Positions 17,908-20,856 of a stretch of DNA of 64,000 bases are shown in pieces. The position numbers and the translations under genes are program-made. Each line of letters opens with the position of its first letter. The first letter of the stretch is position 1. The notes below the pieces were generated by a model. It saw only the letters and a list, made by a program, of their open reading frames with translations, did no database searches and was not told the DNA's origin. The stretch lies in the NCBI RefSeq assembly GCF_965641715.1, contig NZ_OZ282455.1. One strand, 5' to 3'. Origin of the DNA: Escherichia coli (GTDB lineage Bacteria; Pseudomonadota; Gammaproteobacteria; Enterobacterales; Enterobacteriaceae).

Positions 17908-18140
17908 GACAAAGTCTCCATTTCTGGAATTTAAATCAAACGGAAAGGTTAAAAATTTATTTGCAGGCGATAAGAGCTAACCAGAGGAATTAGCCGTGCG
18001 ATAAAAGGATTGTTGCAGATACGAAAGTCGTTAGAATAGCTGCGGGCGCTTGAGGCTGTATGCCGAAAGCGTTTTGTGGACGGTATACAGCAGAAAGCCC
18101 CTGGAGATTTTTTTATCAATCAACCAAGGGCTCTACTGTA

Positions 18141-18344
18141 ATGCCTAGACAACATTATAGTAGCCCGATAACCGCCGTAAGGCAATGGAGGGGCTATGAT
18201 GCCACAGCGAACGTTTTTAATGATGTTAATCGTCATCTGTGTGACGATTCTGTGTTTTGTCTGGATGGTGAGGGATTCGCTTTGCGTACTCCGGCTCCAG
18301 CAGGGAAACACAGTGCTTGTGGCAACGTTAGCCTACGAAGTTAA
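18141..18344 (+). CDS. pndC: PndC (mok-type overlapping reading frame)
   Basis: Reading frame overlapping pndA and ending inside it, as in hok/mok and pndA/pndC. Confidence 0.45.
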   Translation: MPRQHYSSPITAVRQWRGYDATANVFNDVNRHLCDDSVFCLDGEGFALRTPAPAGKHSACGNVSLRS

Positions 18345-18351
18345 ACGTTAA
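18199..18351 (+). CDS. pndA: Hok-family toxin PndA (50 aa)
   Basis: MPQRTFLMMLIVICVTILCFVWMVRDSLCVLRLQQGNTVLVATLAYEVKR: single TM helix plus conserved DSLC motif of Hok/PndA. Confidence 0.8.
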   Translation: MPQRTFLMMLIVICVTILCFVWMVRDSLCVLRLQQGNTVLVATLAYEVKR

Positions 18352-18360
18352 CGGGCAACA

Positions 18361-18390
18361 CGGCGGCAGGTTTTCTGCCGCCGCTTTGTT
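18361..18390 (+). terminator. terminator hairpin after pndA
   Basis: CGGCGGCAG-GTTTT-CTGCCGCCG hairpin followed by a T-rich stretch. Confidence 0.5.
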
Positions 18391-18422
18391 GCGAAGGCTG
18401 ACCTCATTGCGCCCTTTCTTCT

Positions 18423-18674
18423 TCAATGAAGCGTATCCGGTATTGTTTCATTTCCCCTGAAGCCGATTAGCTCCAGCCGAATGCCTTTGCCATCGGGGGC
18501 CACGTTCTGCATTTCGCAGATACCACGTCGGGTCATGAGTGTGAAGGCTGTCATTGCCAGCATGGCTAACGCGTTTTCCTCGCTTCCGCTGCGTTTCTCG
18601 AGAGCATCGGCAATTTCTTCTATGCTCCCCACCTGAAAGCAAGAGTCGAATTCTTTACTCCACTTTTCTGACAT
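18423..18674 (-). CDS. hypothetical protein (83 aa)
   Basis: ORF only; no family recognised. Confidence 0.35.
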   Translation of the reverse strand: MSEKWSKEFDSCFQVGSIEEIADALEKRSGSEENALAMLAMTAFTLMTRRGICEMQNVAPDGKGIRLELIGFRGNETIPDTLH

Positions 18675-18828
18675 CGGATTTTCTCTCTGTATTTATGGGT
18701 AGTTATCGAACTGAATGTGCCAGTTTTTTCAGGAGACGGCAAAGTTGAGATGATTGGTTCTGATTCAGAGCATGAGTTTCCTCGGTGTGACGGGCATGTC
18801 GGGCGGATTTTGAGAAACAACAGATGTA

Positions 18829-18860
18829 AAAAAACCGACTGGTGAGGTCGGTTTTTTTAC
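18829..18860. terminator. bidirectional rho-independent terminator
   Basis: A7-ACCGACTGGTGAGGTCGGT-T7: hairpin flanked by A-run and T-run. Confidence 0.7.
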
Positions 18861-18890
18861 TGTTCCGTTACAGAGTGGGTGGCCCTGACC

Positions 18891-18914
18891 GGAGGAAATC
18901 TCTTTTCAACTAAC
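18891..18914 (+). repeat. direct repeat copy 1 (GGAGGAAATCTCTTTTCAACTAAC)
   Basis: 24-bp element repeated at 19078-19101 with one mismatch. Confidence 0.7.
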
Positions 18915-19077
18915 GTTCTTATAATAGCGAGCTGTTCATTTGATAGCAACCATCCTTATAATCCGCAGGTTAGCTCTGTCTGGCGACACTTCTGCCGTGA
19001 TATCCATCGGGACTATGGATGCAAGATTTTAAGTCCTGGCTGAACAAACAGGTGGTGCTGTGTTCAGTGCTCTGGCA

Positions 19078-19101
19078 GGAGGAAGTCTCTTTTCAACTAA
19101 C
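19078..19101 (+). repeat. direct repeat copy 2 (GGAGGAAGTCTCTTTTCAACTAAC), in the 5' leader of the small toxin-like ORF
   Basis: As above; lies about 60 bp upstream of the 35-aa ORF; GATTTCCTCC at about 19148-19157 is complementary to the repeat's GGAGGAAATC. Confidence 0.7.
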
Positions 19102-19160
19102 ACTGAAAGTGCCGTTGTGACAGGCAATGTAAGAGTAAGCAACGGTGATTTCCTCCAGTG

Positions 19161-19268
19161 ATGGAGAAGCGGATGATTAATCTGTTAATCATCGTTCTCA
19201 GGGCAGTAGTTGCCGTTGCAAACGCGCTGATTGCTGTTCTGGAACTGATCCGGGAACTTGTCGACTGA
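19161..19268 (+). CDS. 35-aa hydrophobic peptide, DinQ/TisB-like type I toxin candidate
   Basis: MEKRMINLLIIVLRAVVAVANALIAVLELIRELVD: single predicted TM helix resembling DinQ/TisB-type peptides as I remember them; too short for the ORF track; followed by a hairpin. Confidence 0.5.
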   Translation: MEKRMINLLIIVLRAVVAVANALIAVLELIRELVD

Positions 19269-19288
19269 TAAGCCTGGAAACGTAACTA

Positions 19289-19317
19289 AGGGCAGGGAGT
19301 TACCGCTTCCTGCCCTT
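19289..19317. terminator. hairpin between the convergent small toxin-like ORF and orf58
   Basis: AGGGCAGG-(loop)-CCTGCCCT stem-loop. Confidence 0.45.
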
Positions 19318-19332
19318 TAACAAAAAGAGATC

Positions 19333-19509
19333 TCACGTTAAAAATTTGTACCCTTCTTTAACTTCCAGTGCCTGCTCCTTTGACTCAAACATCAGTCTTG
19401 TTTTCCCGGGAACACCCCATGAAATGTATTCAACATCTATCCACCATTTTCCATATTCTTCATATGGCCCGGATATTACTTTTTTGACAAAGGCGTCTAC
19501 CAGATTCAT
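19333..19509 (-). CDS. hypothetical small protein (58 aa from internal Met)
   Basis: MNLVDAFVKK... preceded by AAGGAAAAA RBS; the longer 94-aa track ORF probably over-extends. Confidence 0.35.
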   Translation of the reverse strand: MNLVDAFVKKVISGPYEEYGKWWIDVEYISWGVPGKTRLMFESKEQALEVKEGYKFLT

Positions 19510-19894
19510 TATTTTTTCCTTTTTGTGTTGAAAATAATTAATGCCAGAGCACAGCGAAAATAATGAATGCGCTGGCTGTGATAATTGCGATTTTCTCCCA
19601 TATGATATTTTTCTCATGGGGGATTCTACGGAGATTATTTCTTCGCATTGAGATACCGGTATTCATGTTTTATCTTGGACTTTTGTTTTGTTGTCTGTCT
19701 GGCAGGCTGTTCTGCGCCCGTTTGTGACAAGGTTAGCTTATGGGGTTAAATGGTCACGGACATCATGCGGACGGTTCCCTGTCACATGCCATCTGGTTTT
19801 TTCATTCAAATTGAGAGATATTGCTAAGTTGAGTCGCTTGCGATAGTGGACTCCTGTTTGTAAGTGAGTGCCATTGTTTATTTCATGAAGAGGA

Positions 19895-20181: not shown

Positions 20182-20856
20182 TTAAAATACTTCGGCTACA
20201 GGCATGCCTGCAATCTGCTCCCACTCCTTACGCTTCTCCTGAATTAGGCGAGGAAAGTCGACAGGGTAATCATATCCTCTTTCTGCCATTGCATGCATTG
20301 TATCCGCCATCATTTTGGGATGGATGCATCCTGACGGAATTGAGACCATTGGTATATTTATGTATTTTGTATAAATCTCTAGTGTCTTGGCGTCGGTCAC
20401 AGTGCGTGTGAAGTTGTCAATGTCAAAGCCGATAATATCCATTATATTTCCAGGGTAAGCACGAGCATACAGCATAGTGCCTTTTTTGGTATCCACGCCA
20501 AAATAGACGCCCTGAGTAAAAGACAGTCCCTCATATTCTTTGTCAGGTGAATAAAAACCGGTGTTTTTTATCTCCGCGACAATTTTTTTTATTTTGTCTT
20601 TTCTTGAGCTTGCTCGGGAATACATCAATATTGCAGGGGCAATTAGTAAAAACAGACAGACGCAAGTATAAATATAATCTTCTTGCGTCACATATCTTGA
20701 AGATGTAATGGAGAGCACTCCGAAAAGAATAAAAATGGATAACACTGGTATGCTTATGAAATATATAAATCTAAGGGCGTAATATAATGTCCACCAAGCA
20801 GGATATCTATTGATTGTTTTTACCATTTGCATAATAAACCCTCCATAAACACTCAT
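20182..20856 (-). CDS. excA: entry exclusion protein ExcA
   Basis: AT-rich 224-aa membrane-protein ORF immediately downstream of traY, at the R64 exc position. Confidence 0.7.

Follow-up and report, generated by a model that had tools for sequence, protein, structure and literature searches.

The 64,000-nt stretch of Escherichia coli DNA analyzed here (the window) carries, between the pnd locus and excA, a short open reading frame and two copies of a repeated element. Is this a second type I toxin–antitoxin system next to pndCA, to which family does it belong, and what might it do for the plasmid? Positions 18700–19400 of the window were 100% identical to plasmid R64 (IncI1). We consider it very probable that the locus is the dqlB/agrB type I toxin–antitoxin module of R64, which is related to dinQ/agrB of the chromosome and most likely serves as an addiction (post-segregational killing) system alongside pndCA. 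A preliminary description, made from the sequence alone, had proposed a second, different type I system beside pndCA, and this agrees with the matches to the DqlB and AgrB models and with the Hok/Gef gene (18199–18351) and sok match nearby (Table 1). The novelty it implied does not hold, however, as the module is already known: RefSeq annotates the gene on R64 itself as dqlB, “DinQ-like type I toxin DqlB” (WP_001303310.1). The dql family and its four-element leader switch were described in 2016 by Kristiansen et al. (PMC5066626), and the family has been named and validated on other plasmids. Two reports from 2025 showed dql to act as a plasmid addiction module on IncL (PMC12365149) and IncX3 (PMC12317039) plasmids, and the former gives dqlB as present on 67.4% of IncI1 plasmids.

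Table 1. Features of the dqlB/agrB locus and its neighbors (window coordinates).
Feature	Coordinates	Strand	Basis or remark
sok Rfam match, pnd locus	18044–18201		
Hok/Gef gene, pnd locus	18199–18351		Neighbor of dqlB/agrB
agrB-like antitoxin sRNA gene	18826–18914	−	≈89 nt; predicted 5′ end ≈18914/18913; Rfam AgrB
Rho-independent agrB terminator	18826–18860	−	14-bp stem, 100% complementary; minus-strand T run after it
Upstream repeat copy (AgrB target-recognition 5′ domain)	18882–18914	−	Repeat search
agrB promoter	18921–18949	−	TTGCTA, 17-nt spacer, TATTAT; sigma-70-like site scan
dqlB promoter −10, TATAAT	18957–18962	+	T, A, T and final T invariant in 11-locus alignment
dqlB 5′ untranslated leader	18969–19172	+	≈204 nt; alignment with dinQ and nine dql leaders
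Leader stem-loop, probably SL2 of DinQ model	19039–19068	+	Helix 1: 8/11 pairs compensatory, 95.8% of cells paired
Downstream repeat copy (AgrB target site in dqlB leader)	19069–19101	+	Begins 104 nt before ATG; cognate duplex −56 kcal/mol
Element 2, GGAGGAAGUC, anti-anti-Shine-Dalgarno	19078–19087	+	Inside AgrB target; pairs with 19147–19156
Leader stem-loop, probably SL4 of DinQ model	19111–19146	+	Helix 3: 3/8 pairs compensatory, 88.6% of cells paired
Element 3, GAUUUCCUCC, anti-Shine-Dalgarno	19147–19156	+	Partner is element 2 or the Shine-Dalgarno
Element 4, Shine-Dalgarno GGAG	19164–19167	+	5 nt before ATG; conserved in 11-locus alignment
dqlB toxin ORF	19173–19268	+	31 aa, MINLLIIVLRAVVAVANALIAVLELIRELVD, plus stop; NF041473 match and RefSeq annotation
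dqlB terminator hairpin, then TTTAAC	19288–19317	+	Helix 5: covariation in 5/12 pairs
excA	20182–20844		Neighbor on the other side of dqlB/agrB

The encoded peptide matched the NCBIfam DqlB family (NF041473, equivalog) with 66.4–67.0 bits (cut-off 35) over all of profile positions 1–31, and failed the DinQ family (NF041472), scoring 20–21 bits against a cut-off of 30. No TisB, ZorO or ShoB protein match was found in NCBIfam, and no IstR or OhsC RNA match in Rfam; the TisB and IstR searches extended to E 10, and a relationship to TisB was rejected on these grounds. The toxin had been described as DinQ/TisB-like, of which the first half stands and the second does not. Its sequence reads as one short hydrophobic helix, presumably flanked by polar or charged residues, and has been kept as a coding sequence: the ORF is intact at 31 codons and never interrupted in 11 loci, and the variable columns number 11, 3 and 22 at codon positions 1, 2 and 3, a bias toward the third position.

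The 35-aa ORF originally reported (19161–19268) is present, but its start is probably four codons too early. The sole good Shine-Dalgarno sequence falls within that ORF, and both the RefSeq protein and the 31-position NCBIfam profile begin at MINLL, so that ATG 19173 is the likely start codon. GGAGGA at 19078 is not the ribosome-binding site of the ORF; that role falls to the GGAG at 19164–19167. The toxin start is frequently mis-called in annotations, and the features annotated on R64 and on the further RefSeq records inspected do not include the antitoxin RNA (those of R64 came from a PLSDB table that leaves out RNA genes). The practical value of the locus lies in annotation, and it carries little weight as a discovery.

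On the opposite strand, the Rfam AgrB model (RF02891) matched at positions 18913–18826 over its full length (1–84), scoring 55.3 bits where the gathering threshold is 40 (E = 6e-8); the covariance search that had been suggested for the repeat-containing region thereby placed the upstream copy inside an AgrB match. The RNA is predicted to fold into a single-stranded 21-nt 5′ tail, a small stem-loop and a terminator hairpin (−27 kcal/mol, z-score −3.3). Since the terminator stem is a perfect palindrome with A/T runs on both sides, it could work in both directions. Both of the hairpins said to bound the locus, at 18826–18860 and 19288–19317, were found. A scan of positions 18600–19500 for sigma-70-like sites yielded two, of which only that at 18921–18949 is placed to drive either transcript; the other (19317–19345, plus strand) lies downstream of dqlB. 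In most of 10 loci, a −35 hexamer of the TTGC(A/T) or TTGAC type and a −10 hexamer of the TAnnAT type keep a constant distance from the RNA 5′ end, the hexamers being poor in L007a and L009. An antisense RNA had been anticipated at 18880–18960; it is predicted instead at 18826–18914 on the minus strand, and 18921–18962 holds two divergent promoters.

Of 12 other loci, 10 had an AgrB match that was placed divergently in the same way. In L011, the pOXA-48-type locus, and in L012, Rfam gave none at E ≤ 0.01, although an agrB-type repeat could be found by eye in L011. A sub-threshold match to OrzO-P (33.6 bits against 60) was obtained on the R64 antitoxin RNA.

The two repeat copies connect this RNA to the toxin mRNA. 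The 24-bp element noted earlier as recurring about 185 bp upstream is real, but the repeat is longer (33 nt, 29/33 identical, with a spacing of 187 nt) and its copies are dispersed rather than tandem. Allowing up to three mismatches, the 24-mer GGAGGAAGTCTCTTTTCAACTAAC occurred only at 18891–18914 and 19078–19101 in the 64 kb, and none of 100 shuffles reached even two matches. As an RNA duplex, the 33 nt comprise 29 Watson-Crick pairs, three G.U pairs and one mismatch; of the four positions at which the copies differ, three are precisely such as to retain a G.U pair between sRNA and mRNA. Ten related loci have other repeat sequences, yet each AgrB matches its own leader, and the target sits 96–111 nt before the ATG in every locus while its core sequence varies. 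Over 11 loci, the duplex energy averaged −57 kcal/mol for cognate and −36 kcal/mol for non-cognate combinations. G.U-compatible transitions between copies outnumbered incompatible ones by 30 to 8 in ten of the eleven loci (excluding the mis-registered L011), counts that are not phylogenetically independent; the p-value of this direction test is invalid as independent evidence because several of the differences are shared by descent. The above-threshold AgrB match on the opposite strand and the co-variation of the pairing in the ten other loci thus support the earlier suggestion of a divergent sRNA that covers the upstream copy and pairs with the toxin leader.

The dqlB promoter was not reported by the promoter scan because its −35 element is poor (TTCATT, 16-nt spacer, 3/6 matches). 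The transcription start was placed at about G18969, where GTTAGCTCTG after the −10 element aligns with the mapped +1 of dinQ, whose position we derived from coordinates in PMC5066626. The whole dqlB transcript had a fold z-score of −6.0. Its leader helices were paired in 95.6% of cells overall, against 87% in shuffles, with 22 pairs showing double changes, against 10.7 in shuffles. The names SL2 and SL4 in Table 1 are tentative assignments made here against the DinQ model. GGAGGAAGTC (19078–19087) is 90% complementary to GATTTCCTCC (19147–19156), and in this 2:3 duplex 5/10 pairs are compensatory and 97.3% of cells are paired in 11 loci. When the AgrB target was blocked in silico, the anti-Shine-Dalgarno shifted onto the Shine-Dalgarno as a CUCC:GGAG hairpin. 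As most loci read CTCC/GGAG by eye, these 3:4 pairs look almost invariant and carry little information. Taken together with the folding models, the alignment indicates that the mutually exclusive 2:3 (Shine-Dalgarno open) and 3:4 (closed) pairings of the dinQ/dql switch are present on R64. The complementarity between GGAGGA and TCCTCC had been read as sequestering ribosome binding; the pairing itself is backed by compensatory changes, but in the DinQ model it frees the site.

Other aspects of the switch were less sharply defined by the predictions. The unpaired probability predicted for the Shine-Dalgarno went from ≈0.3 to ≈0.2 upon blocking the target, and thermodynamic predictions are weak discriminators here. 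In-silico 5′ truncations scarcely altered its predicted accessibility; because full-length, 5′-truncated and target-blocked leaders differ so little, the accessibility scans neither confirm nor refute a 5′ processing step. The start codon lay within a hairpin in all predicted states. For the element 1:2 lock of the DinQ model, only an 8-bp candidate was present (18989–18996 with 19074–19081), and in the minimum-energy fold the 5′ element at 18989–18996 paired with the Shine-Dalgarno, not with element 2.

Based on these features and on the homologous systems, we propose the following mechanism. The dqlB mRNA would start at the TATAAT promoter and carry a structured leader ahead of the sequence for a single-helix inner-membrane toxin of 31 aa, while the divergent promoter (18949–18921) would give rise to an AgrB-like RNA of ≈89 nt running from 18914 to 18826. 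In the open state, GGAGGAAGUC would pair with the anti-Shine-Dalgarno, presumably leaving the GGAG free. Binding of the single-stranded AgrB 5′ end to leader positions 19069–19101 would take element 2 away from the anti-Shine-Dalgarno, which, having lost this partner, would close over the ribosome-binding site. The long AgrB:dqlB duplex is probably also an RNase III substrate. Upon plasmid loss, the antitoxin RNA would decay sooner than the toxin mRNA, so that DqlB would be made and the cell would die. By analogy with the homologues, the R64 toxin would be harmful to the cell and repressed in trans, its mRNA would be processed at the 5′ end, cleaved by RNase III and more stable than AgrB, and the module would confer addiction to R64.

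The closest characterized systems are those of pOXA-48 (IncL) and pOXA-484 (IncX3), for which we took loci L011 and L008, respectively, as representatives of the validated types. For pOXA-48, PMC12365149 reports that DqlB is toxic and gives ghost cells, that agrB supplied in trans rescues them, that an agrB mutant with 4 nt changed in the pairing region was built, and that plasmid loss leads to killing; for pOXA-484, toxicity, neutralization and plasmid stabilization were shown experimentally (PMC12317039). The pOXA-48 DqlB has 31 aa and is 81% identical to the R64 peptide. Its agrB likewise gives a divergent antisense RNA, ≈33–35 nt of which can pair with the leader at a site some 100 nt ahead of the ATG, and the leader motifs, the layout from Shine-Dalgarno to ATG and the terminator are conserved with R64. 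In contrast, the pairing sequence is unrelated (R64 AgrB gives −39.5 kcal/mol with the pOXA-48 target, compared to −56 with its own), the RNA escapes the Rfam model that detects its R64 counterpart, and the module sits between repA and trbC instead of between pnd and excA. In the IncX3-type locus, which comes from an OXA-181 plasmid, the toxin is also 81% identical to that of R64 and an AgrB match lies divergently upstream, but the specificity sequence is another one, the agrB–dqlB spacing is 308 nt compared to 260 nt in R64, and transposable elements lie around it.

More distant parallels are found in zorO-orzO, shoB-ohsC and tisB-istR1, trans-encoded type I systems of E. coli in which a divergent sRNA targets a long 5′ leader that undergoes processing, at a site far ahead of the ribosome-binding site, but the R64 locus does not belong to these sequence families. 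The neighboring pndCA, 0.7 kb upstream and of the Hok/Sok type, is also a type I membrane toxin system for plasmid maintenance that is controlled via mRNA folding. Hok/Sok antisense RNAs overlap the leader of their toxin in cis; these systems couple translation to a leader ORF and activate the mRNA by 3′ processing. The R64 AgrB, by comparison, is encoded apart from its target and would act via the direct-repeat copy. With pndCA and dqlB/agrB adjacent to each other, R64 and IncI1 plasmids would therefore hold two type I addiction modules, which bears on plasmid-curing strategies against IncI1 resistance plasmids.

The chromosomal dinQ-agrAB locus (PMC3567139, PMC5066626) shares with R64 a divergent sRNA with a 33-nt match ≈105 nt before the start codon, the SL2 and SL4 stem-loops, the anti-Shine-Dalgarno/Shine-Dalgarno hairpin and a similar terminator. 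The DinQ peptide has the motifs MI-IIVL and LELIR in common with the R64 peptide, but is 27 aa long and lacks its central AVVAVAN segment. The E. coli chromosome has two sRNA genes (agrA and agrB), R64 only one; a LexA operator covers the promoter of dinQ but is absent from that of dqlB on R64; and the presumed role is the SOS response for dinQ, but plasmid addiction for dqlB on R64.

Might the R64 module nevertheless be an SOS-induced stress toxin like dinQ, repressed by LexA and triggered by DNA damage instead of plasmid loss? We consider this very unlikely. Regulation of dinQ by LexA (PMC5066626) makes it a natural suggestion, as does a CTG-N10-CAG motif at 19036–19051, the identical sequence of which is listed as a candidate LexA site (heterology index 11.64) in the IncI1 plasmid pTF2 (PMC12211044). 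However, this motif, the sole one near the dqlB promoter, lies ≈70 nt inside the transcript, away from the promoter, and overlaps and mostly forms the 5′ arm of the co-varying SL2-like hairpin; its CTG and CAG triplets are replaced in other loci. Furthermore, the 49 CTG-N10-CAG matches in the window compare with 47 predicted by trinucleotide frequencies, and the two triplets occur just as often at other spacings. As an operator, the motif was rejected on account of its position in the hairpin and its unexceptional frequency. The dinQ operator, TACTGTATGATTATCCAGTT, overlaps −10 to +1, a position at which R64 has CCTTATAATCCGCAGG and at which none of nine other plasmid loci has both half-sites. 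The search for a LexA box that had been recommended thus gave no operator at the dqlB promoter. We also considered that dinQ had acquired its LexA box through a 20-bp insertion relative to R64, an idea that was dropped because the MAFFT alignment shows equal spacing with diverged sequence.

It is similarly improbable that dqlB/agrB has decayed on R64 into an inactive relic that is neither expressed nor toxic, leaving addiction to pndCA. Such a reading could appeal to the poor −35 element, to the derivation of toxicity and addiction on R64 from homologues, and to a transposon screen of the IncI1 plasmid pESBL that scored the ORF covering the region as non-essential, in gene-level data that do not report on the agrB segment. 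The score is no argument against function, since disruption of a toxin gene by insertion should be tolerated. Against the relic reading, the locus has an intact ORF, Shine-Dalgarno, invariant −10, pair of terminators and 33-nt pairing. The exact cassette recurs in ≈485 plasmid records at ≥99% identity, substitutions fall mostly at third codon positions, and compensatory changes preserve both the RNA helices and the match between sRNA and mRNA. The toxin and RNA homology, the promoters, terminators and complementarity, and the co-variation of pairing and leader helices come from the present analysis. That the repeat copies act as DNA sites for protein binding or recombination rather than via RNA pairing is extremely improbable: they are direct repeats flanking the promoter region, but one is the 5′ domain of the covariance-model match, the other co-varies with the anti-Shine-Dalgarno, which is sensible only in RNA, the differences between them favor retained G.U pairs, and for the pOXA-48 homologue PMC12365149 describes rescue from DqlB by agrB in trans and a pairing mutant built to test base-pairing.

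As a separate observation, IncI1 backbones appear to exchange a specificity cassette of ≈280 bp within the dqlB/agrB module. R64 and the IncI1-type sequence NZ_CP021533.1 are 96–100% identical per 50-nt window for at least 0.5 kb on each side (most windows 50/50), but only ≈40–85% identical across 18870–19161, a segment in which both promoters, the recognition domain of AgrB and the dqlB leader as far as the anti-Shine-Dalgarno are found. Neither the AgrB terminator nor the toxin ORF takes part in this divergence (1 nt difference in the ORF). We found no description of such an exchange in the dinQ/dql literature examined. Cross pairs between the two alleles gave −27 and −36 kcal/mol, compared to −56 and −67 for the cognate pairs, and the alleles are thus predicted not to cross-neutralize. 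It is conceivable, though doubtful at this point, that the recognition specificity of the module is a swappable cassette. If the exchange were adaptive, related plasmids would diversify their antitoxin specificity such that a competitor's AgrB could not protect a cell losing the resident plasmid, an RNA-level analogue of incompatibility-determinant switching; the swap could in this respect offer a modest clue to the diversification of antitoxin specificity among plasmids. At ≥95% identity, the two alleles are represented by roughly 500 and 560 PLSDB records, respectively.

Plasmid R64 (NC_005014.1, IncI1/B/O, conjugative) matches the region 18700-19400 at 100% identity, as do hundreds of further IncI1 plasmids; the gene order is trbA, Hok/Gef gene, 83-aa hypothetical, the locus described here, small hypothetical, excA. 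The locus, the dqlB/agrB type I toxin-antitoxin module of R64, belongs to a family that is already known, annotated and validated by experiment. The preliminary description of a DinQ/TisB-like toxin candidate was confirmed as an observation and supported in its interpretation, although the start codon, the RNA coordinates and the role assigned to a GGAGGA:TCCTCC pairing needed correcting; the hairpins said to bound the locus were also found.

Features of the dqlB/agrB locus and its surroundings
Feature	Position	Strand	Details
Rfam sok match	18044-18201		
Hok/Gef gene (pnd locus)	18199-18351		
Hypothetical gene	between pnd locus and dqlB/agrB locus	minus	83 aa
Hairpins delimiting the locus	18826-18860 and 19288-19317		
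Repeat copies	18882-18914 and 19069-19101		33 nt; 29/33 identical; 187 nt apart
agrB sigma-70-type promoter	18949-18921	minus	TTGCTA, 17-nt spacer, TATTAT
dqlB −10 box	18957-18962		TATAAT; T, A, T and final T invariant in the 11-locus alignment; placed by alignment with dinQ
dqlB (WP_001303310.1)	19173-19268		31 aa; RefSeq annotation of R64 gene
Small hypothetical gene	between dqlB/agrB locus and excA	minus	
excA	20182-20844		

The toxin ORF is present as proposed, and its peptide scored 66-67 bits against the NCBIfam equivalog NF041473, “DinQ-like type I toxin DqlB” (cut-off 35), but only 20 bits against the model for DinQ proper, under the cut-off of 30. The ORF had been started at 19161; ATG 19173 is better supported, being preceded at a distance of 5 nt by the only good Shine-Dalgarno (GGAG, 19164-19167), which falls inside the longer ORF; the 31-position NF041473 profile, too, opens with MINLL. 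Disruption of the frame in relatives had been named as evidence against a toxin gene. The 31-codon ORF was uninterrupted in all eleven diverged loci, and its variable columns (11/3/22 at codon positions 1/2/3) displayed the third-position bias that is the signature of a translated gene. The start codon itself lies within a 9-bp hairpin (GAUGAUUAA/UUAAUCAUC, 19172-19193), built by codons 1-7 and 98% paired over the 11 loci, which dinQ retains via changes on both sides at one pair. Translation may thereby be subject to an additional level of control.

The Rfam AgrB model (RF02891) is matched over its full length by 18913-18826 on the minus strand, at 55.3 bits (gathering score 40). The agrB promoter is located directly upstream, and the RNA ends in a perfect 14-bp terminator, preceded in the predicted ≈89-nt molecule by a 21-nt single-stranded 5' tail and a small stem-loop. 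An antisense RNA had been anticipated over the upstream copy of a repeated element, and AgrB does lie there, although at corrected coordinates: the upstream copy coincides exactly with the AgrB 5' domain. The repeat is likewise real, but is 33 nt long rather than 24; no further copy of the 24-mer core was found within the 64 kb at ≤3 mismatches, and chance alone would give none. The two copies are direct repeats and AgrB is transcribed from the opposite strand, which makes this RNA complementary to the dqlB leader at 19069-19101. Of the four positions at which the copies differ, three still allow G·U pairs, so that the duplex comprises 29 Watson-Crick pairs, 3 G·U pairs and 1 mismatch.

A divergent AgrB match was found in 10 of the 12 other dql/dinQ loci fetched, with a −35/−10 pair equidistant from the RNA start in most of these ten (the hexamers are poor in two). 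In each of ten other loci an equivalent repeat precedes the start codon by 96-111 nt; its core sequence varies by locus, and both copies change together. The computed duplexes averaged −57 kcal/mol when cognate and −36 kcal/mol when non-cognate; a few groups cross-react. This co-variation is strong comparative evidence for selection on the RNA-RNA interaction. The antitoxin RNA was absent from the annotated features of the records examined; for R64 these came from the PLSDB table, which leaves out RNA genes. The divergent agrB and dqlB promoters (18921-18962) are interleaved, with the agrB −35 between the dqlB −35 and −10, and a mere 55 bp or so separates their predicted starts; the two could therefore interfere with each other.

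Alignment to the mapped dinQ +1 (coordinates from PMC5066626) placed the dqlB transcription start at about G18969, giving an inferred leader of about 204 nt. In dinQ (Kristiansen et al. 2016, PMC5066626), element 2 is part of the AgrB target and base-pairs with the anti-Shine-Dalgarno (element 3), which keeps the Shine-Dalgarno of the processed mRNA accessible; once AgrB has bound, element 2 is no longer available, and elements 3 and 4 close as a Shine-Dalgarno hairpin. RNase III cuts the AgrB:mRNA duplex, and the primary transcript stays locked by the 5' element 1 until it is processed. In R64, GGAGGAAGTC (19078-19087) is complementary to GATTTCCTCC (19147-19156), and the GGAGGA/TCCTCC pair is elements 2 and 3. 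The pairing was 97.3% maintained over 11 loci, and 5 of its 10 pairs show compensatory changes. The terminator also co-varies, as do two more helices of the leader, interpreted as SL2 and SL4 in the DinQ model; overall, 95.6% of cells were paired, vs 87.0% in shuffles and ≤61% in slid controls. In silico, blocking 19069-19101 shifted the anti-Shine-Dalgarno onto the Shine-Dalgarno. Together with the DinQ switch model, the co-variation and this shift indicate that the pairing, while real, most likely serves to open the ribosome-binding site, not to sequester it as had been suggested. AgrB bound at 19069-19101 would take element 2, and the anti-Shine-Dalgarno would then close over the Shine-Dalgarno. 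The element 1 lock was not clearly recovered in R64, where there is only an 8-bp candidate; the minimum-energy fold pairs this segment with the Shine-Dalgarno instead, and predicted accessibilities shift little.

A LexA box had also been considered. Where dinQ has its promoter-overlapping operator, neither R64 nor any of the nine other plasmid loci has one at the aligned position. A CTG-N10-CAG motif at 19036-19051 has been proposed as a weak LexA site on another IncI1 plasmid (PMC12211044). Against this reading, it lies inside the transcript, overlaps the 5' arm of a co-varying stem-loop (19039-19068), and has triplets that are not conserved in other loci. Its frequency, too, argues against it: across the window this motif occurs 49 times, whereas dinucleotide shuffles predict 17, but the surplus is no LexA signal, since the abundance of CTG and CAG trinucleotides accounts for it fully (47 expected) and other spacings behave similarly. 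Constitutive expression fits an addiction module, not an SOS gene.

The dql family (dqlA, dqlB) was named in 2016; its members are found both on the chromosomes and on the natural plasmids of Enterobacteriaceae. DqlB of a pOXA-48-type plasmid and that of an OXA-181 plasmid, taken to represent the IncL and IncX3 systems, each share 81% identity with the R64 peptide. According to the 2025 pOXA-48 (IncL) study (PMC12365149), DqlB is toxic with ghost cells, is neutralised by agrB in trans, and kills cells that have lost the plasmid; the authors also made an agrB pairing mutant and report dqlB on 67.4% of IncI1 plasmids. The IncX3 copy is toxic, neutralised by agrB, and stabilises its plasmid (PMC12317039). 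We found no published experiment on the R64/IncI1 allele itself; a pESBL transposon screen was uninformative for agrB.

R64 and L002, an IncI1-type plasmid locus (NZ_CP021533.1), are 96-100% identical per 50-nt window across 18320-19830 (most windows 50/50), except in a ≈280-bp patch (18870-19161; 551-845 in L002) where identity drops to about 40-85%. The AgrB recognition (5') domain falls in this patch, together with the two promoters and the leader of dqlB, and the two alleles are predicted to be poorly cross-reactive. At ≥95% identity, PLSDB contains about 510 records of the R64 type and about 560 of the other, with a third type at 80-90%. The near-identical flanks, the toxin ORFs differing by one nucleotide, and the abundance of both alleles suggest recombinational exchange of an antitoxin-specificity cassette.

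On the plasmid NZ_AP027755.1 (L014, 645-892), a true dinQ, going by its name in RefSeq, adjoins a Tn3-family transposase, and the AgrB match ends only 77 nt before the start codon; no long complementarity was found in the short intervening leader, and the arrangement is unlike all other loci. The L005 plasmid has two AgrB-like matches (499-586 and 804-891) ahead of its one dqlB gene, reminiscent of the agrA/agrB pair on the chromosome. Two dqlB genes lie in tandem in L006 (172-267 and 856-951) and L007 (664-747 and 1308-1403), where copy L007a encodes a shortened 27-aa variant, MMNLLIIVLRAVLAIANALIAIQKLIE.
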